This document shows, one piece after another, positions 1 through 8,396 of a stretch of DNA of 8,396 bases. The stretch lies in IMG/VR virus record IMGVR_UViG_2778261464_000009, positions 1 through 8,396 of that record. One strand, given 5' to 3'. The stretch is from a virus (taxonomy: Duplodnaviria > Heunggongvirae > Uroviricota > Caudoviricetes). Positions within the stretch are counted from its first letter, which is position 1. Each line of letters starts with the position of its first letter. A program made the position numbers and the translations under genes. The notes below the pieces were generated by a model. It saw nothing but the letters and a program-made list of their open reading frames with translations. It was not told the origin of the DNA and searched no databases.

Positions 1-69
1 AATAATTTCTGGTCAGACTCTGAATACCGACTCAATAAACACGGCTCTGTATTAAATGCTGTATTAATC

Positions 70-267
70 ATGCTGGCGCAACATGCTCTGCTTATAGCAA
101 TTTCAAGCGACTTAAATGCATATGGTGTTGTGTGTGAGTTCGACTGGAATGATGGAAATGGTCAGGAAGGATGGCCTCCAATGGATGGTAGCGAAGGAAT
201 AAGAATTACCGATATCGATACATCAGGAATATTTGATTCAGATGATATGACTATCAAGGCCGCCTGA
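70..267 (+). CDS. Hypothetical acidic protein; may be the C-terminal part of a longer CDS, since this frame has no stop back to position 1
   Basis: ORF track 70..267; the same frame is open from nt 1. No Shine-Dalgarno before ATG 70, so the true start may lie upstream of the window. A GC hairpin follows the stop. Confidence 0.3.
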   Translation: MLAQHALLIAISSDLNAYGVVCEFDWNDGNGQEGWPPMDGSEGIRITDIDTSGIFDSDDMTIKAA

Positions 268-342
268 GTGCGGCTTTACCGCATACCAATAACGCTTCAC
301 TCGAGGCGTTTTCGTTATGCAATCAAACAGAAGGAGAATCCT

Positions 343-513
343 ATGCAACAGTTCGCTATTGCAGGGGCGGCATCGGTTCGCCCTTTCAACCCGATTTTAT
401 CGGTACAGCATTCACGAAAAAATATTTTAACCGGAGCAGACTTTAAACAACCAAGAATGAAAAGTTTGCTCGAAAAGCTTTGGGATATTTTTAAACAACA
501 AGGCCGTCCATGA
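343..513 (+). CDS. Small hypothetical phage protein (56 aa); the track ORF 268..513 trimmed to the RBS-supported start
   Basis: AGGAG at 332-336 sits 6 nt before ATG 343. The stop TGA 511-513 overlaps a downstream ATG at 510 (ATGA). Confidence 0.35.
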   Translation: MQQFAIAGAASVRPFNPILSVQHSRKNILTGADFKQPRMKSLLEKLWDIFKQQGRP

Positions 514-620
514 GTTTTACAGATAACTGGTCAGACGAAGAATTCATTCGTCAGATGAAAGAAATGCTCAATCAGCACAAAGAACAGGAGAAAGATGATG
601 ATTCTGACTCTGAAAGATGA
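510..620 (+). CDS. Possible 36-aa acidic micro-ORF (MSFTDNWSDEEFIRQMKEMLNQHKEQEKDDDSDSER)
   Basis: ATG 510 overlaps the upstream stop. Weak RBS (AAGG). It overlaps the next CDS by 26 nt in another frame. Not in the ORF track because of its size. Confidence 0.2.
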   Translation: MSFTDNWSDEEFIRQMKEMLNQHKEQEKDDDSDSER

Positions 621-906
621 GCGTGAAATATCGCAAATAATCGCAAGTTTTACTGATGAAGATTACGAACGAATCAACAGTGAAGTTGATCGCCTCTGCA
701 AACGTTGCGACCCAATAAGCGAAATGCTTCGCTCATATAAACCAGATGAACACACTAAGGACGCTATCGACTGGCTGGAAGATTATGACTGTAACTATCA
801 GGAAAAAGCCGCTGAATGGTTCTGGGATGCAATAACCGAAAGAGTTAAGGCTGAATATGCCTTCGCAATATTCAAACGCAGACACGTTTATGGAGAAGCA
901 GCATGA
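595..906 (+). CDS. Hypothetical phage protein (103 aa), translationally coupled to recT
   Basis: AGGAG at 586-590; ATG at 595 and 598 (598 gives the better spacing). Stop TGA 904-906 overlaps the recT ATG 903 (ATGA). No recognisable family. Confidence 0.55.
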   Translation: MMILTLKDEREISQIIASFTDEDYERINSEVDRLCKRCDPISEMLRSYKPDEHTKDAIDWLEDYDCNYQEKAAEWFWDAITERVKAEYAFAIFKRRHVYGEAA

Positions 907-1814
907 GCAATATCGTTGAATTCGTTAAACAGCAAGAGCAGTTATTCTGCGGAGCATTGACTGAACAGACGGTGACATGGGCTAAGGAAAGCCAGTTTGC
1001 AATTCAGTATTTCCAGAAAAATGATTACCTGGCTAAAACAGCACTGGCAAATCCAACCAGCGCACAGAACGCCATCATCAATGTTGCGGCGATCGGTATC
1101 ACCTTAAACCCGGCTAGCAAACTGGCTTATCTGGTTCCGCGCGACGGCATGGTGTGCCTTGATATCAGTTATATGGGATTGCTCCATATTGCAATGGAGT
1201 CTGGTGTTATCTCATGGGGTCAGGCAAAACTTGTTCATGCTAACGATACCTATGAGTCAAACGGGCTTGATAAAGCACCAACCCATAAATACAACGCCTT
1301 CGGTGATCGTGGTGATATTGTTGGCGTTTACTGCACAGTTAAGACGCCAGCAGGTGATTATCTAACGGAAGAGATGAGTCTGGCTGAAATTGAGGCTGTA
1401 AGGAAAACAAGCAAGGCAGCATTCAGCGATAAAGGACCATGGGTAAATCACTGGAATGAGATGGCGCGAAAGACGGTCGTAAAGCGTGCAAGCAAGTATT
1501 GGCCTAAGGCATCACGTCTTGATAGTGCTATTCACGTACTAAACGAAGAAGAAGGTGTGTGGACTGAACCAGTTATGCCGCACAAATCAGAGGAAGATAT
1601 CCGCGAAGATGAACGGAAACGCCAGCAGGAAATAATGGATAAAGCACAACTTCTTTGCGATGAAATGGCTCAGGCAGAAAACATGGATGATTTGAAGCGA
1701 TATTTTGCAGAAGCATATCGCCTGACATCTGGAATGAAATTGCAGCAGAACGTACAAGCCATTTACATAGAATGCAAAGCGAAACTGGAGGTTGCCAGTG
1801 AGCAAACTGTATGA
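903..1814 (+). CDS. recT: RecT-family single-strand annealing recombinase
   Basis: 303-aa product with the segment GPWVNHWNEMARKTVVKRASKYWP, which closely matches the conserved E. coli RecT region GPWVTHWEEMAKKTAIRRLFKYLP as recalled. GGAG 7 nt upstream of ATG 903. Confidence 0.85.
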   Translation: MSNIVEFVKQQEQLFCGALTEQTVTWAKESQFAIQYFQKNDYLAKTALANPTSAQNAIINVAAIGITLNPASKLAYLVPRDGMVCLDISYMGLLHIAMESGVISWGQAKLVHANDTYESNGLDKAPTHKYNAFGDRGDIVGVYCTVKTPAGDYLTEEMSLAEIEAVRKTSKAAFSDKGPWVNHWNEMARKTVVKRASKYWPKASRLDSAIHVLNEEEGVWTEPVMPHKSEEDIREDERKRQQEIMDKAQLLCDEMAQAENMDDLKRYFAEAYRLTSGMKLQQNVQAIYIECKAKLEVASEQTV

Positions 1815-2280
1815 AATTGCCAATGAATACGCAAAATTGATGGATTCAGATTTAGAACCAGAGATGATTGCTGACACAATAGAAGGCATGGAAGGAGAAT
1901 TTACCGATAAAATAGAGCAACTTCTTGCCATTATTAAAAATGAATCTGGTTATGCTGAACGCCTCAAGGAAGAGGCAAGGTCGCTGAATGAGCGAGCCGC
2001 AGTAATTCAAAATAAGATTGACAGCATTATGGCGTATATAGCGGCATCGCTTGAAATGGTTGGCAAGAAAAAGATTCGAGCAGGTATTCACCAGGTAACA
2101 ATCCGCAAACCGTCAGAAATTGTAGAAATAATCGACTCAAGCGCCCTTCCTCCTGAATACGTTGAGTTTGAAACGACAATTAAAGCCGACAAACTGGCAA
2201 TCAAACACCAACTAAAAGCAGGAATAAATATCCCCGGTGCTCAACTCAAAGTTGGGAAACCTTCACTTCTTATCAAATAA
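1798..2280 (+). CDS. Siphovirus Gp157-family protein (often partnered with phage annealing proteins)
   Basis: N-terminal LYEIANEYAKL...IADTIEGMEGEF, then a coiled-coil, then a C-terminal VTIRKPSEIVEIID...LPPEYV...IPGAQL pattern, consistent with the Gp157 family as recalled. GGAGG at 1787-1791 is 6 nt before GTG 1798; the track start TTG 1792 is the alternative. Overlaps the recT 3' end. Confidence 0.6.
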   Translation: MSKLYEIANEYAKLMDSDLEPEMIADTIEGMEGEFTDKIEQLLAIIKNESGYAERLKEEARSLNERAAVIQNKIDSIMAYIAASLEMVGKKKIRAGIHQVTIRKPSEIVEIIDSSALPPEYVEFETTIKADKLAIKHQLKAGINIPGAQLKVGKPSLLIK

Positions 2281-2291
2281 CGGTATCGCCT

Positions 2292-2606
2292 ATGAAAAAG
2301 ACTCCATGGGAGAAATGGGAAGTCGATTTCTTGCGCGAGGTAGCGGCGACAATGCCAGTTGAAGTTATCGCAGAAAAACTGGAAAGGACTGAAAAAGCAG
2401 TAATGGCGAAAGCAACAAGGATTGGCGCTGACATTGTTAGCCGACTTCGTGGAAGACGCTGGACAAGAGCCGAAGTATCACTTTTCGGTAAGTTCTCCGC
2501 AGAAGAAATAGCAATTGCAACCTGCCGCTCAATTTATTCAGTAAGAGCTATGCGATACAAGCTAAAAAAACTCGATGAAGAAAGAGCAGGCATACAAATA
2601 AATTAA
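2292..2606 (+). CDS. Hypothetical protein (104 aa) with two internal helix-rich repeats, possibly a Myb/HTH-like DNA-binding fold
   Basis: ORF track. Two similar segments ([32 protein letters not shown] and [31 protein letters not shown]). Weak RBS. Confidence 0.5.
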
Positions 2607-2622
2607 CAAAGAGGAATTTACC

Positions 2623-2787
2623 ATGAGAGGGCTTGCATACAATCCCGGCATTCTTCCGGCAGAAATGATTATTCGCCAACGCGTAAAGCCAATGCCATCG
2701 AGAGAGGAATTGCTTAAGAGAAATTCTTTTCCATCAGTAAATCAAAACAAATATCTGAATGCGATGTGGCGGAGTGGGAAGAAATGA
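2623..2787 (+). CDS. Small hypothetical protein (54 aa, basic)
   Basis: AAGAGG RBS before ATG 2623. Stop TGA 2785-2787 overlaps ATG 2784 of the next CDS (ATGA). Below the track length cutoff. Confidence 0.3.
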
Positions 2788-3266
2788 AACAAATGTCACT
2801 AATTGAGATGGATGATTTTCTGAAAGGTAAATGCATCCCACGAGATTTAAAGGTTAACGAAACAAACGCTGAATATCTGGTGCGTAAATTTGCTGAAGCG
2901 GAGGCCAAGTGCGCGGCGCTGGCCGAAGACCAACAGAAAGCGATTGAGTCAATTAAGCAGGCTGATGCGGCTGTTAAGTTGGCACACGAGAAGTTTTCGG
3001 CGCTGGCGGCGGAGAATGCGGGTCTGAAACACGCAATGGCCGTAACTCTTGAGCATGTGTCGGTAACGGATGCAGGGCAGGCCGGAGTTGCTGCAATGAT
3101 TATCAACGATGCCCTACACCACAGCGAAACCCCAACCACCGATGCTTTCCTGGCTGAAGTACGGGCGCAGGGGGTAGAGATGTTTGCTGACCATCTGTTG
3201 TGCCCAGACCTTGATGACACTATCCGTGACTTTGCTGCCCAGCTTCGCAAAGGAGGCAACCAGTGA
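2784..3266 (+). CDS. Ala-rich coiled-coil phage protein, possibly an Ea22-like module
   Basis: Track ORF 2766..3266. ATG 2784 is preferred because of the ATGA coupling and a GGAG at 2770-2773; GTG 2766 is the alternative. The stop overlaps the next start (GTGA). Confidence 0.55.
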
Positions 3267-3832
3267 GCGAAATTAATTACCAGGCACTGCGTGAGGCGGC
3301 AGAGAAAGCAACGTGGGGAGACTGGGACTCATATAAACCACACCGTGGCGCACGTGGTTATGAGGTCCGACTAAGTAGTCAGGCCATTGCGCAACACGTC
3401 CTGAAAAACAACGCTGAATTTATTGCTGCCTTTAATCCAAAGATTGCTTTGGCACTACTGGATGAACGGGAAAGAAACCAGCAATACATCAAACGCCGCG
3501 ACCAGGAGAACGAGGATATTGCGCTAACAGTAGGGAAGCTGAGAGTTGAGCTGGAAGCCGCAGAGAAGCGCATTGCAGAGCTGGAAAGCAACGAAGTCCG
3601 TGAAGTCGGAAATCAGTTTCTTGTTGTTCGCCATCCTGGGAAAACTCCTGTCATCAAGCACTGCACTGGTGACCTGGAAGAGTTTCTGCGGAAGTTAATC
3701 GAACAAGACCCGTTAGTAACTATCGACATCATTACGCATCGCTATTACGGGATTGGCGGTCAATGGGTTCAGGATGCAGTTGAGTATCTGCATATGATGT
3801 CTGACGCTGGCATTCGCATCAAAGGAGAGTGA
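3263..3832 (+). CDS. Ead/Ea22-like family protein
   Basis: AGGAGG at 3251-3256 is 6 nt before GTG 3263. The N-terminus [17 protein letters not shown]... resembles prophage Ea22-like proteins as recalled; central coiled-coil. Position between the recombination module and xis matches lambda ea22. Confidence 0.55.
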   Translation: MSEINYQALREAAEKATWGDWDSYKPHRGARGYEVRLSSQAIAQHVLKNNAEFIAAFNPKIALALLDERERNQQYIKRRDQENEDIALTVGKLRVELEAAEKRIAELESNEVREVGNQFLVVRHPGKTPVIKHCTGDLEEFLRKLIEQDPLVTIDIITHRYYGIGGQWVQDAVEYLHMMSDAGIRIKGE

Positions 3833-3833
3833 T

Positions 3834-4043
3834 ATGGCTATCGCTGCAAGTTACACCATGCATCTCTATTGTGATTGCCTCCAGTGTACAGATGGCAAAT
3901 ATAAGTCGCCAGACTTCGGTGAGTATATCGGTACGTCATGGGCTGGCTGTGCAAAAGAGGCGCGCAAGGACGGCTGGCGAATAAGCAAAGACAAAACACG
4001 TGCTTTTGCGCCCGGGCATAAAGTTTTGAGGATTAACAAATGA
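3834..4043 (+). CDS. Small Cys-rich protein (69 aa), possible zinc-ribbon
   Basis: AGGAG at 3823-3827 before ATG 3834. The CDC-x2-C motif plus a further Cys suggests metal binding. Stop TGA 4041-4043 overlaps ATG 4040. Confidence 0.5.
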   Translation: MAIAASYTMHLYCDCLQCTDGKYKSPDFGEYIGTSWAGCAKEARKDGWRISKDKTRAFAPGHKVLRINK

Positions 4044-4738
4044 CAACTATTACCAGAGAGCGACTGCTGACAATCAGGCAGTGGCGCGAAACATACGGAC
4101 CGGGTAGCAACGTTGTACTGCCAGCAGAAGAAGCGGAAGAACTGGCACGAATTGCACTGGCATCGATCGAAGCGGAGCCTGTAGCGTGGAAATGGCGGCT
4201 TACTAGTCTTTTTGACGGTGTGCAAATTGGCCCGTGGCGGGTGTGTCTTGCGCCACTATCACCCGGCAAGGGGGATGGGTGCAAGACAGAAGCTATTCCA
4301 CTTTACACCGCCCCGCCAGTACCGGTGGTACCTGCTGCATTACCTGAGAACGACGATGAGGACGGGCATGACATTGATTATCTTGAGCCATCTGAAGTTT
4401 ACGCGCTTGGGCGAACATCTGGCTGGAACGCCTGCCGCGCTGCCATGCTTCATAGTGCCGAACCTGTAAGCCAGGCTTACAAGTTGAACGCGCTGGCTGG
4501 CAACTCTCCGGTAACTCCGGATGGTTGGATAAGCTGTAGTGAGCGAATGCCGAACGATAAACAGTATGTTTGGTGTTGGGGTAAGTCTTACGGTTGGACT
4601 GAGTGCGATACCTTCGAAGGGTATTACGATTGGTCGAGAAACAAATGGTGGGCAGTTACTGACGATGGGGAAGAGCCGGCATCGAAAGTAACCCACTGGA
4701 TGCCGCTGCCAGAACCGCCGGAGCAGGATGGTGAATGA
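4040..4738 (+). CDS. DUF551-domain prophage protein (232 aa)
   Basis: The C-terminal region (PDGWISCSERMPNDKQYVWCW...VTHWMPLPEPP) matches the DUF551 signature as recalled. The N-terminal half is a separate, unrecognised domain. Confidence 0.6.
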   Translation: MTTITRERLLTIRQWRETYGPGSNVVLPAEEAEELARIALASIEAEPVAWKWRLTSLFDGVQIGPWRVCLAPLSPGKGDGCKTEAIPLYTAPPVPVVPAALPENDDEDGHDIDYLEPSEVYALGRTSGWNACRAAMLHSAEPVSQAYKLNALAGNSPVTPDGWISCSERMPNDKQYVWCWGKSYGWTECDTFEGYYDWSRNKWWAVTDDGEEPASKVTHWMPLPEPPEQDGE

Positions 4739-4824
4739 TGCCGCCAGTTAAAGTTGTGATTATCACTTTGGTGATGATAGTGATTGCGAGAATCATGTCT
4801 GGTGAAGTTTGGTGGATATGGTAA
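4735..4824 (+). CDS. Predicted 29-aa hydrophobic single-helix membrane peptide (MMPPVKVVIITLVMIVIARIMSGEVWWIW)
   Basis: ATG 4735 overlaps the upstream stop TGA 4736-4738. One continuous hydrophobic stretch with a Trp-rich C-terminus. Two hairpin-plus-T-tract structures follow directly. Confidence 0.3.
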   Translation: MMPPVKVVIITLVMIVIARIMSGEVWWIW

Positions 4825-4857
4825 TGGCTAAGGCAGCAGCAGAGCGCAACTAACAAT

Positions 4858-4882
4858 CCTCGCTCTCGCGGGGATTTCTTTT
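4858..4882 (+). terminator. Putative intrinsic terminator (first of a tandem pair)
   Basis: Stem CCTCGC/GCGGGG (5 Watson-Crick pairs plus one G-U) with loop TCTC, followed by ATTTCTTTT. Confidence 0.4.
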
Positions 4883-4887
4883 ATCTG

Positions 4888-4912
4888 AACTCGCTACGGC
4901 GAGTTTTGTTTT
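4888..4912 (+). terminator. Putative intrinsic terminator (second of the pair)
   Basis: Perfect 7-bp stem AACTCGC/GCGAGTT with loop TACG, followed by TTGTTTT. Confidence 0.45.
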
Positions 4913-4925
4913 ATGGAGATGATAA

Positions 4926-5093
4926 ATGCACTTCCGAGTCACAGGAGAATGGAATGGAGAGCCATTCAACAGAGTTATCGAAGCAGAGAACATCAACGAC
5001 TGCTATGACCACTGGATGCTATGGGCGCAGATAGCACATGCAGACGTAACCAATATTCGAATTGAAGAACTGAAAGAACACCAAGCCGCCTGA
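4926..5093 (+). CDS. Small hypothetical protein (55 aa)
   Basis: GGAG at 4915-4918 is 7 nt before ATG 4926. Product MHFRVTGEWNGEPFNRVIEAENINDCYDHWMLWAQIAHADVTNIRIEELKEHQAA. The stop lies inside a terminator hairpin. Below the track cutoff. Confidence 0.45.
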   Translation: MHFRVTGEWNGEPFNRVIEAENINDCYDHWMLWAQIAHADVTNIRIEELKEHQAA

Positions 5094-5108
5094 TGGCGGT
5101 TTTTTATT
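5083..5108 (+). terminator. Putative intrinsic terminator
   Basis: GC stem GCCGCC/GGCGG(T) with loop TGAT, followed by TTTTTTATT. Confidence 0.45.
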
Positions 5109-5119
5109 GGAGACAAGAA

Positions 5120-5464
5120 ATGTCAGATTTGGCTATGAAGGTTTTGAAATGGCAATCGACTGGCGATGTTGGCATCAGTAGCGCAACTCTTGCCTCAATC
5201 GCATGTGGACTGAAAAAGAATATCTATGGTCATAGCTTCGGTGCTCCACATGACGCAGCCGATTTCCGACGATGCGTTGCGCTTGTCGAGCAGATTCCAG
5301 AAATCAGGGATTCATTCGACAAGGTTGCAAAGCGCGTTCCGGCATTCAAAGGAATCCTCAACGAATGGGATTCCCTCGTTGCTCTGTTGAAGTCTGAAAT
5401 GAAGATACACGGAAACAAAGCACCAGAGACTTACAGAAGAATCAGCGAGCTACGCAAGGACTAA
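5120..5464 (+). CDS. Hypothetical protein (114 aa), uncharacterised accessory gene just upstream of xis
   Basis: Track ORF 5093..5464 trimmed to ATG 5120, which has a GGAG at 5109-5112 with 7-nt spacing; ATG 5093 sits inside the terminator stem. No recognisable family. Confidence 0.55.
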   Translation: MSDLAMKVLKWQSTGDVGISSATLASIACGLKKNIYGHSFGAPHDAADFRRCVALVEQIPEIRDSFDKVAKRVPAFKGILNEWDSLVALLKSEMKIHGNKAPETYRRISELRKD

Positions 5465-5553
5465 CCACAGCCTCACACTCGATGAGGCCTGTTCATTTCT
5501 CAAGATATCCAGACCTACCGCAATAATACCAACGCAATAAATGGAGATTCCAG

Positions 5554-5901
5554 GTGGAAGAAGAAATCTTCACTCGTGAAGAGGCTGCGTCGTATCTGAA
5601 GGTAGACAAAGGCACTATCACGCAGTGGATACGAAGTGGACGACTTCAAGCCGCAAAGATAAATCCAGATAAACCTAAAAGCCCATATCGCATTTGCAAG
5701 TCAGACTGCATTGCGGCGCTTAAGTCTGTGAGACACAATAGCGCGGTGAATGCGGTTGATGTGCAGGAGGTTAAAGCATGTCAATCAAACTACGCGGTGG
5801 CACGTGGCACTGCGATTTCGTCGCGCCAGATGGATCAAGAGTTAGACGCTCTCTTGAAACATCGGACAAAAGGCAAGCGCAAGAACTTCACGATCGTCTG
5901 A
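5554..5901 (+). CDS. xis: Excisionase-family DNA-binding protein (Xis)
   Basis: N-terminal FTREEAASYLKVDKGTITQWIRSGRLQAAKI matches the excisionase-family HTH pattern. GGAG is 7 nt before GTG 5554. It lies directly upstream of int and overlaps it by 124 nt in another frame; the 3' extent is uncertain. Confidence 0.6.
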   Translation: MEEEIFTREEAASYLKVDKGTITQWIRSGRLQAAKINPDKPKSPYRICKSDCIAALKSVRHNSAVNAVDVQEVKACQSNYAVARGTAISSRQMDQELDALLKHRTKGKRKNFTIV

Positions 5902-6938
5902 AAGCAGAAGCGTGGAGAGTAAAAAATCTCGGGGAATCACCGAAAAAGCTATTCAAGGAAGCCTGCATACGGTGGCTGCGTGAGAAATCGGATAAGAAGT
6001 CCATTGATGATGACAAGAGCATTATATCGTTCTGGATGTTGCACTTCAGAGAAACCATTCTCTCTGACATAACAACAGAAAAAATAATGGAGGCGGTAGA
6101 CGGGATGGAAAACCGCCGCCATCGCCTGAACTGGGAGATGAGCCGGGACAGGTGTTTGCGGCTTGGCAAGCCAGTGCCGGAGTATAAACCAAAGCTGGCA
6201 AGCAAAGGAACGAAGACGCGGCATCTGGCAATACTTCGCGCTATTCTCAATATGGCTGTTGAATGGGGATGGCTTGACAGGGCGCCAAAAATATCAACAC
6301 CACGCGTTAAGAATGGACGAATCAGATGGCTTACAGAGGAGGAATCGAAGCGCCTGTTTGCAGAAATTGCTCCTCATTTCTTCCCTGTGGTCATGTTTGC
6401 AATCACGACAGGCCTTCGCCGTTCCAACGTTACAGACCTTGAGTGGTCACAGGTCGATCTGGATAAGAAAATGGCATGGATGCACCCTGATGAAACAAAA
6501 GCTGGCAATGCGATCGGAGTTCCTCTTAACGAAACCGCATGCCAGATATTAAGAAAACAGCAGGGGCTCCATAAGAGATGGGTATTTGTCCACACCAAAC
6601 CTGCCTACCGAAGCGACGGAACAAAAACAGCAGCGGTAAGGAAGATGAGAACCGACAGCAACAAGGCATGGAAGGGAGCGTTAAAGCGGGCAGGCATTAG
6701 CAACTTCCGCTTCCATGACCTGAGGCATACCTGGGCAAGCTGGCTGGTTCAGTCTGGTGTCTCTCTTCTTGCGCTTAAAGAGATGGGAGGATGGGAAACT
6801 CTCGAAATGGTTCAAAGATACGCCCACCTTTCAGCCGGGCATCTCACCGAGCACGCGAGCAAAATCGATGCGATTATAAGTCGCAATGGCACAAATACGG
6901 CACAAGAGGAGAACGTAGTTTACTTAAATGCGAGGTAA
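5778..6938 (+). CDS. int: Tyrosine-type site-specific integrase (phage integrase family)
   Basis: 386 aa. N-terminal arm-type domain (MSIKLRGGTWHCDFVAPDGSRVRRS...). Catalytic residues in context: TGLRRSN, HDLRHTWAS, and Tyr in MVQRYAHL. AGGAGG is 7 nt before ATG 5778. Ends 14 bp from the tRNA. Confidence 0.9.
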   Translation: MSIKLRGGTWHCDFVAPDGSRVRRSLETSDKRQAQELHDRLKAEAWRVKNLGESPKKLFKEACIRWLREKSDKKSIDDDKSIISFWMLHFRETILSDITTEKIMEAVDGMENRRHRLNWEMSRDRCLRLGKPVPEYKPKLASKGTKTRHLAILRAILNMAVEWGWLDRAPKISTPRVKNGRIRWLTEEESKRLFAEIAPHFFPVVMFAITTGLRRSNVTDLEWSQVDLDKKMAWMHPDETKAGNAIGVPLNETACQILRKQQGLHKRWVFVHTKPAYRSDGTKTAAVRKMRTDSNKAWKGALKRAGISNFRFHDLRHTWASWLVQSGVSLLALKEMGGWETLEMVQRYAHLSAGHLTEHASKIDAIISRNGTNTAQEENVVYLNAR

Positions 6939-6952
6939 CTTATTGATTTAAA

Positions 6953-7028
6953 TGGTGCCGATAATAGGAGTCGAACCTACGACCTTCGCATTACGAATGC
7001 GCTGCTCTACCAACTGAGCTATATCGGC
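6953..7028 (-). tRNA. thrW: tRNA-Thr (anticodon CGU)
   Basis: The reverse complement is a 76-nt tRNA: GCCGATATAGCTCAGTTGGTAGAGCAGCGCATTCGTAATGCGAAGGTCGTAGGTTCGACTCCTATTATCGGCACCA. 7-bp acceptor stem, GTTCGA T-loop, anticodon CGT at positions 34-36, encoded CCA end. Confidence 0.9.
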
Positions 7029-7142
7029 CCTGAAAGGACATGTTCACGAACGTGAATCACGGTGGGCAAGGTTAAAACTAACCGGGCGATGCGTCAATGG
7101 CCTTGTGAATCAAATGGCTACTTTTGCATCACCCGGTTTTAT

Positions 7143-8396
7143 TTACGCACGAATGGTGTAATCACCAATGCCGATCCACTTGTAAGTGGTCAGTGCTTCC
7201 AGCCCCATTGGGCCACGCGCGTGGAGTTTTTGTGTGCTTACCGCCACTTCCGCACCCAGTCCAAACTGACCGCCGTCGGTAAAACGCGTAGAAGCGTTAA
7301 CGTAAACAGCGGACGAATCCACTTCGTTAACAAAACGCTGGGCGTTGCGCATATCGCGGGTCAGGATCGCATCGGAGTGTTGTGTGCCGTGTTCACGAAT
7401 ATGGGCGATGGCATCGTCAAGATCGCTGACGATTTTGACGTTCAAATCTAATGACAGAAACTCATCGTCATACTCTTCGGCTTTAACCGCCACCACCTTC
7501 GCGGGGCCAGCCTGCAACTGTGTCAGCGCAGCTGCATCTGCGTGTAATGTCACGCCGCTTTCCGCCATTTGTTTGCTTAATACGGGCAGGAAGCTATCGG
7601 CGATGTTTTTATTCACCAGCAACGTTTCTACCGTATTACATGTGCTCGGACGCTGAGTTTTCGCGTTGACGATCACTTTTAATGCTTCAGCGATCTCTGC
7701 ACTTTCATCAACATAAATATGGCATACGCCTATACCACCTGTGATCACCGGGATCGTCGACTGTTCGCGGCACAGTTTATGCAAACCAGCCCCGCCGCGC
7801 GGGATCAGCATGTCGATGTATTTATCCATACGCAGCATTTCACTGACCAGCGCACGGTCAGGATTATCAATTGCCTGCACGGCACCCGCCGGTAAGCCAC
7901 AGGATTTCAGGGCGTCCTGAATCACCGCCACCGTTGCCGCGTTAGTGCGACAGGTTTCTTTGCCGCCGCGCAGGATCACCGCGTTACCGGTTTTCAGGCA
8001 CAGCGAAGCGACATCAACCGTCACGTTCGGGCGCGCTTCATAAATCACGCCAATAACCCCCAGCGGTACGCGACGACGCTCAAGACGCAGGCCGCTGTCC
8101 AGTACGCCGCCATCGATTACCTGCCCCACCGGATCGGCGAGGTTGCACACCTGACGTACATCGTCGGCAATGCCTTTCAGCCGTGCGGGCGTCAGTGCCA
8201 GACGGTCAAGCATCGCTTCGCTAAGGCCATTGGCACGCGCGTCAGCAACATCCTGGGCGTTAGCGTTGAGGATGATTTTGCTCTGTGCTTCCAGTTCATC
8301 GGCGATTTTTTCCAGCACGCGATTTTTTTCGCGGCTTGAGAGTTGCGCTAATTTATACGAGGCTTGCTTCGCGGCAATGCCCATTTGCTCCAGCAT
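7143..8396 (-). CDS. proA: Gamma-glutamyl phosphate reductase (glutamate-5-semialdehyde dehydrogenase), full length
   Basis: 417-aa product beginning [39 protein letters not shown]... and ending ...[12 protein letters not shown], near-identical to E. coli ProA as recalled. The start codon is at the window's right edge. Confidence 0.95.

Follow-up and report, generated by a model that had tools for sequence, protein, structure and literature searches.

A nuclease-free RecT-Gp157 recombination module in a lambdoid prophage and a candidate RecBCD antagonist at its head

A coupled three-gene module within the early left operon

The stretch of DNA analyzed here, referred to as the window, comprises positions 1 to 8,396 of the caudoviricete virus record IMGVR_UViG_2778261464_000009. 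Between positions 595 and 2280, it carries a complete recombination (Rec) module of three translationally coupled plus-strand genes: a 103-residue open reading frame (ORF), hereafter ORF103 (595..906), recT (903..1814) and a Sipho_Gp157-family gene, hereafter Gp157 (1798..2280). The original prediction, made from the sequence alone, had reported all three at these coordinates and had drawn attention to a RecT and Gp157-like pair with no visible exonuclease. The ORF103 stop and the recT start overlap as ATGA at 903-906. The Gp157 gene starts with GTG at 1798, 6 bases past a GGAGG that we read as its ribosome-binding site (1787..1791, within the recT 3' end), and overlaps the end of recT by 17 nucleotides; both this spacing and the 160-residue call in most homologs indicate that the predicted start is correct. 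No plus-strand terminator-like site was found within 595-2280, and promoter-like sites occur there at a frequency not above that of shuffled sequences. The cluster lies in the pL (early left) operon, between cIII and int.

The recT product belongs to the RecT family (PF03837, E 3.7e-32 and 111.9 bits, with the cutoff at 24; TIGR00616, 82.4 bits, with the cutoff at 52.65). It falls below the Rac RecT equivalog NF007351 (101.7 vs 296) and, by these profile scores, is a RecT-family member and not an ortholog of Rac RecT. In the classification of Zheng et al. (2025), it is a type 4 single-strand annealing protein (SAP). The Gp157 product matches PF05565 over profile positions 1-162 (124.5 bits against a gathering threshold of 28.6), as do 35 of 35 homologs; it falls in phrog_253, corresponds to the “MuGam” type of Zheng et al. 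and is 62% identical to the HK639 protein given that name in their paper. ORF103 is small, acidic and predicted to be all-helical. It falls in phrog_3486, a group of unknown function, and has no Pfam match at E ≤ 0.1 and no NCBIfam match, so that its earlier description as coupled and unrecognized stands.

The module is ~98% nucleotide-identical to those of HK140 and mEpX1 (window 281-2700), with RecT 99-100% identical across HK140 and mEpX1 and 100% identical to that of mEpX1. It is found at this identity on two unrelated virion backbones of sequenced viable phages, one HK97-like (mEpX1/HK140) and the other P22-like (Gally/Kapi1). More broadly, this gene order recurs in >240 independent loci, which excludes a chance arrangement.

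No product of the window matched a nuclease family in Pfam, the PHROGs or a further scan. Using phmmer, every stop-to-stop ORF of the window, of the locus in the related EC12 prophage (which spans the left edge of the window) and of the whole mEpX1 genome was compared with four reference nucleases (YqaJ and RecE-like); at permissive settings, the best E value was no better than 0.5. Between pL and the module, EC12 carries N, two small ORFs, a DUF2528 gene and cIII. No Exo, RecE or YqaJ is annotated in the complete mEpX1 and Gally genomes, and a YqaJ or RecE-like gene was found in 0 of 244 loci with RecT and Gp157, examined with 5-6 kb flanks. The adjacent YqaJ/Exo or RecE-type PD-(D/E)XK gene of a canonical Red or RecET system was found neither in the window nor in the prophage flanks nor in whole phages. 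A phage exonuclease is truly absent from this module type.

The original prediction had left two explanations standing, namely an exonuclease past the left edge or a noncanonical partner set. The left edge does cut a DUF2528 gene, and the window’s own upstream sequence is beyond view, which leaves room for a partner lying before position 1 or at another place in the prophage. This explanation is effectively refuted by the EC12 upstream genes, the annotations of mEpX1 and Gally, the phmmer scan and the 244 loci, and HK140 is scored as nuclease-free by Zheng et al. (PMC12315714). An exonuclease off the left edge was thus rejected on prophage flanks and whole phage genomes, and the noncanonical partner set is the correct alternative of the two.

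The combination of RecT and Gp157 with no exonuclease is real but ordinary; it is a common design in lambdoid phages that has already been catalogued, and it changes no existing picture. Zheng, Casjens, Davidson, Amundsen and Smith (Genome Res 2025, PMC12315714) list HK140 with SAP type 4 and a “MuGam” anti-RecBCD protein but neither a phage single-stranded DNA-binding protein (SSB) nor a phage nuclease. They give 84 of 246 lambdoid Rec modules as lacking a nuclease, so that the earlier premise of an exonuclease as the usual companion of an annealing protein holds only loosely, and they count 46 phages in the P22-type functional class, in which an anti-RecBCD function and an annealing protein are the only components. 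In this scheme, the window holds a lambdoid Rec module without a nuclease, of the P22 functional class and the HK140 sequence type, having an SAP and an anti-RecBCD-type gene in the pL operon. Its module is essentially identical to that of HK140 and mEpX1 and agrees with it in gene order and in both flanks (cIII and a D5-like ORF), but the window copy belongs to a prophage that sits at tRNA-Thr/proA and whose integrase region differs. In Firmicutes phages, Mu gam-like and orf157-like (Sipho_Gp157) genes share a place beside annealing-protein genes and have been inferred to be analogous in function (Szczepankowska et al., PMC8093625), which supports the earlier remark that Gp157-family genes often adjoin such genes. 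Literature searches for Gp157 together with RecT turned up no more than passing mentions in annotations. In PMC12315714, the 103-residue first gene is left out of the HK140-type module. The modest value added here to the 2025 paper is a hypothesis for ORF103 and the covariation of the RecT tail with its partner.

Exchangeable partners on either side of recT

The same flanks, cIII on the left and a D5-like or Abc1-like ORF on the right, enclose different cassettes in different phages. The cassette of HK542 consists of Erf, an SSB-like protein and Abc2; that of 29485 of Erf, Abc1 and Abc2; that of SEN22 of ORF103, a RecE-like nuclease and a 189-residue protein; that of Dewey of lambda Gam, RecT and Gp157; and that of HK639 of GamL, RecT and Gp157. 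In Cronobacter phage ENT47670 and Erwinia phage Midgardsormr38, RecT-YqaJ cassettes begin with a more distant homolog of ORF103 (33-48% identity), and in phiEt88 such a homolog leads a RecE-like-RecT cassette; Pfam confirmed the nucleases.

A census of 269 fetched loci, whose ORFs were classed by phmmer against reference proteins, shows Gp157 and an exonuclease to be alternative occupants of the slot after recT. The order is ORF103-RecT-YqaJ in ENT47670, Midgardsormr38 and Dryocola, as against ORF103-RecT-Gp157 in the window. This exchange is mirrored within RecT itself. Alignment across cassettes with different partners divides the protein into a conserved core, residues 1-215 (~903-1547), and an exchangeable C-terminal tail, residues ~225-303 (~1575-1811). 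Tails are 37-46% identical among Gp157-partnered RecTs and 42-80% identical among Exo/YqaJ-partnered ones; across the two partner groups they are only 11-19% identical, although the cores reach 70-78%. In tblastn searches with the window RecT, Exo-partnered relatives align only as far as residues 218-233, and few matches run to the end. Alignments of the RecTs of Ss-VASD, phi80 and a Vibrio phage are confined to the core, and these carry nucleases. The RecT of Aeromonas phage 4_L372X aligns through the tail, and the predicted Gp157 was found downstream, unannotated, with 160 residues and 56% identity to that of the window.

Annealing proteins of the RecT class engage in specific interactions with their cognate exonucleases. 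Taken with the grouping of RecT tails by partner, this specificity suggests that Gp157 may be the physical partner of RecT, contacted through the tail.

Upstream of the 4_L372X cassette (L270, 1912-2195), two 47-residue ORFs are the only ones present, with no ORF103, Gam or GamL; slot 1, the position at the head of the cassette, is therefore not obligatory outside Enterobacterales.

For the slot just upstream of recT, the unbiased subset of the census is the 131 loci that were seeded with Gp157. GamL occupies it in 66 of them, ORF103 in 45, lambda Gam in 10 and a small acidic ORF of no assigned class in 7; in the remaining 3, the slot is cut off. The occupant changes even inside RecT clusters that are at least 95% identical. 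ORF103 lies directly upstream of the annealing gene and is mutually exclusive with Gam and GamL, save for a single case in which the accompanying GamL is a 47-residue remnant. It always comes first in its cassette, and an ATGA or TAATG overlap joins its stop codon to the start codon of the following gene, be that recT or the gene for a RecE-like nuclease. ORF103 thus stands in the exact place of the RecBCD inhibitor of other phages, which appears not to have been noted before.

No sequence relationship accompanies this shared position, and ORF103 matches no Kil or Gam family by sequence. The outcome that would have refuted the original prediction, a canonical exonuclease directly upstream plus such a match, was therefore not observed. 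It is not a member of the lambda Gam family (PF06064; hhalign probability against Dewey Gam, 5.9%) or of the phi80 GamL family (NF033500; hhalign 0.2%), to which HK639 GamL itself scores 151 bits. The predicted ORF103 fold may be weakly Gam-like; a Foldseek search of it against viral models gave no match.

Other unclassified small acidic proteins (103-126 residues) lie upstream of RecT-Gp157 on the viral contigs L172 (3797-4108), L182 (3755-4108) and L253 (3694-4074). None of the three has a PHROG match, and that of L172, the sole one scanned against NCBIfam, has no match there. They may be additional slot-1 sequence types.

SEN22 gene 31 (L004, 3945-4514), which encodes the 189-residue protein after the RecE-like nuclease, falls in phrog_11517 and has no Pfam or NCBIfam match. 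SEN22 is scored in PMC12315714 as having a nuclease and an SSB and no annealing protein; this protein may be either an SSB or a novel annealing protein.

A proposed mechanism and its rivals

Mu-type Gam binds DNA ends and stops the loading of RecBCD (PMC12407980). Gp157 is similar to Mu Gam and Ku in size, in a predicted long helix followed by a beta domain and, in Firmicutes phages, in its place beside annealing genes. Its AlphaFold model (pLDDT, predicted local distance difference test, 82) has a long helix at residues 21-88 and then a small beta domain, and its match to PF07352, the Mu Gam family, is colinear though sub-threshold. That Gp157 may work like Mu Gam is suggested by this weak colinear similarity, the published fold-based classification and gene position. 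By sequence, it falls outside the Mu Gam family, and end binding would be a proposed property.

A Foldseek search of the Gp157 model also returned weak matches (E 0.008-0.8) to several models of phage exonucleases of the PD-(D/E)XK and RecB-like kinds. These could align the long helix only, or a Gp157-like domain fused to nucleases.

We consider it probable that ORF103, recT and gp157 form a complete and functional lambdoid Rec module that works as follows; its composition and its lack of a nuclease are shown, and the mechanism is inferred. The module would be transcribed from pL as one unit, and RecT would anneal complementary single strands. By analogy, Gp157 would be a dimeric protein of the Mu Gam kind in the place of the exonuclease, binding DNA ends and shielding phage DNA from RecBCD. 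The dedicated C-terminal tail of RecT would contact Gp157, such that RecT is delivered to the ends, and single-stranded DNA for RecT would come from host enzymes (e.g. RecQ/RecJ) or replication forks rather than from a phage nuclease. ORF103, in the slot held by lambda Gam or phi80 GamL in near-identical cassettes, would most likely neutralize RecBCD directly and independently. The more specific proposal that ORF103 (phrog_3486) adds a third inhibitor of RecBCD to the Gam type, unrelated by sequence to the other two, and that Gp157 replaces the exonuclease as a tail-recognized, end-binding loader of RecT, is tentative and falls somewhat short of probable.

Several results weigh against this mechanism. 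Gp157 scores 17.4 bits against PF07352, below the gathering threshold of 28.3, and only 8 of 35 Gp157 homologs reach that family at E ≤ 0.05. The Gp157 profile aligned with authentic Mu Gam by hhalign at a non-significant 1.2% probability, and it matched no PDB sequence. The two proteins fall in different PHROGs (phrog_491 for Mu Gam and phrog_253 for Gp157) that have the label alone in common. In the Foldseek search against viral models (BFVD), the matches were mostly unnamed Gp157-like proteins, with no named Gam or Ku among them. Homology between Gp157 and Mu Gam is not demonstrable here, and the sequence link appears weaker than the labels imply. An end-blocking protein also leaves the source of single-stranded DNA for RecT unexplained, and the tail-partner pattern could arise from simple linkage, as the tail codons adjoin the partner gene and co-inheritance would be enough. 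Finally, avoidance of Chi is usual in phages that have a RecBCD inhibitor (PMC3784561), but the complete mEpX1 genome contains six Chi sites (GCTGGTGG), 6 on the top strand and 0 on the bottom strand, vs ~0.63 expected per strand. Such a count is unexpected given one or two anti-RecBCD functions. With few complete genomes at hand, Chi counts make too weak a test of inhibition, and this one speaks mildly against full inhibition.

Three other explanations bear on parts of this proposal. P22 Arf likewise sits just upstream of an annealing gene, and ORF103 could be an accessory recombination factor of that sort, or an unrelated hitch-hiker at the cassette boundary, rather than a RecBCD antagonist; this is a possibility to be taken seriously, if not the expected outcome. 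Against it, ORF103 and Gam or GamL exclude each other from a slot that is identical in all other respects, also inside RecT clusters of at least 95% identity, and translational coupling is kept no matter which gene comes next. Redundancy with Gp157 is no objection to an inhibitor at this position, since Gam and GamL also occur with Gp157, and ORF103 is the sole anti-RecBCD candidate in SEN22-, ENT47670- and phiEt88-type modules. The SEN22 class is moreover given zero Chi sites in Table 1 of PMC12315714.

For Gp157, the alternative to an end protector is that it supplies the missing resection activity itself, either as a cryptic or divergent nuclease or as a recruiter of a host nuclease. Gp157 occupies the exact YqaJ/Exo slot of sister cassettes and is never found together with such a gene, and RecT tails vary in step with it, just as they do with genuine exonucleases. 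The order of elements in its model (helix, three strands, helix, strands) superficially resembles a PD-(D/E)XK core, and the weak Foldseek matches to PD-(D/E)XK and RecB-like exonuclease models point the same way. Against these observations, Pfam, the PHROGs and NCBIfam place Gp157 in no nuclease family, Mu Gam being the only second family; those Foldseek matches may cover the long helix alone, and a catalytic motif was not identified. In the fold-based classification of 2025 (PMC12315714), it is called MuGam. We regard a resection role as improbable. Still further from likely is decay of the module to a nonfunctional remnant whose exonuclease has been lost. Location in a prophage would be in keeping with decay, but the three ORFs are intact and coupled, the same arrangement is present in isolated plaque-forming or inducible phages, and across >240 loci from Escherichia to Aeromonas the proteins have diverged with their lengths conserved.

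The nuclease-free module favored here shares features with several known systems. With lambda Red (gam-bet-exo) and phi80 (gamL-rec-exo), it shares the operon position, the order of small slot-1 protein, annealing protein and partner, and translational coupling. The phi80 RecT core is 59.5% identical to that of the window by tblastn and 61% by local alignment, and its tail is unrelated (18%). The window module differs from both in that its third gene is Gp157 rather than YqaJ/Exo and that ORF103 has no sequence similarity to Gam or GamL. With P22 (arf-erf-abc1-abc2), it has in common an annealing protein and an anti-RecBCD function, the lack of a phage nuclease and a dependence on host enzymes; a gene of phrog_323, the group that includes Abc1, follows, and the flanks are those of HK542 and 29485. 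Unlike P22, its annealing protein is RecT rather than Erf and it has no Abc2. P22 Abc2 modifies RecBCD, whereas the proposal for the window is a blocking of DNA ends.

Should ORF103 prove to be an inhibitor, SEN22-, ENT47670- and phiEt88-type modules that have been scored as having no anti-RecBCD gene would have one after all. ORF103 is a candidate for a new family of RecBCD inhibitors, proteins that serve in recombineering and in quinolone potentiation; lambda Gam has been shown to act as a quinolone potentiator (PMC5218532). Should Gp157 prove to be a loader, it would represent a nuclease-free route linking DNA ends to an annealing protein. The natural series of domain swaps suggests that the RecT C-terminal tail specifies the partner, a non-nuclease partner included, and such specificity bears on why some RecTs recombineer alone while others need a cognate partner.

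Cassette flanks and prophage setting

The left flank of the swappable cassette is a conserved cIII homolog (343..513, plus strand; phrog_550, ‘CIII anti-termination’, E 2.8e-21), preceded by the DUF2528 gene identified by Pfam (70-267, plus strand). A 36-residue ORF (510..620, plus strand) spans the cIII stop and the ORF103 start, its ATG overlapping the former and its end overlapping the latter. Its matches to phrog_2123 and phrog_17766 take in residues 1-21 and 1-32 and reach no further than the N-terminal part of these groups, which represent the small gene located ahead of erf in HK542 and 29485. This ORF is probably a truncated 5' remnant of that gene, marking the left mosaic junction.

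The conserved right flank is ORF104 (2292..2606, plus strand), which encodes a basic, helix-turn-helix (HTH)-like protein (phrog_323, E 2.2e-20). The group phrog_323 takes in ORF104, P22-type Abc1 and Mu gp9, whose gene lies directly upstream of Mu gam (window 2292-2606; L007, 3722-4006; L012, 5482-5781), and the slot that follows Gp157 holds ORF104 in some cassettes and Abc1 in others. No BLASTP alignment was obtained between ORF104 and Abc1, and tblastn gave no match to P22-type phages. The label ‘Anti-RecBCD protein 1 (Abc1)’ carried by ORF104 in the Gally record is unsupported by these searches, the loose phrog_323 grouping being the sole link. This family of small HTH-like proteins recurs beside end-protection and recombination genes.

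The window is the integrase-proximal end of a mosaic lambdoid prophage inserted at tRNA-Thr (thrW) beside proA. Downstream of ORF104 are DUF2737, ea22-like and DUF551 genes, an excisionase-like HTH gene (5554-5901) and a tyrosine integrase gene (5778-6938), all on the plus strand, followed on the minus strand by tRNA-Thr(CGT) (6953-7028) and proA (7143-8396). Thousands of E. coli genomes align to parts of the window and 0 cover 80% of it in one piece, as is expected of a mosaic prophage at thrW. Right after the DUF2737 gene, near window position 2750, the guanine-plus-cytosine fraction steps from ~0.42 to ~0.51, which suggests that a further mosaic junction separates the recombination region from the ea22-DUF551 block.

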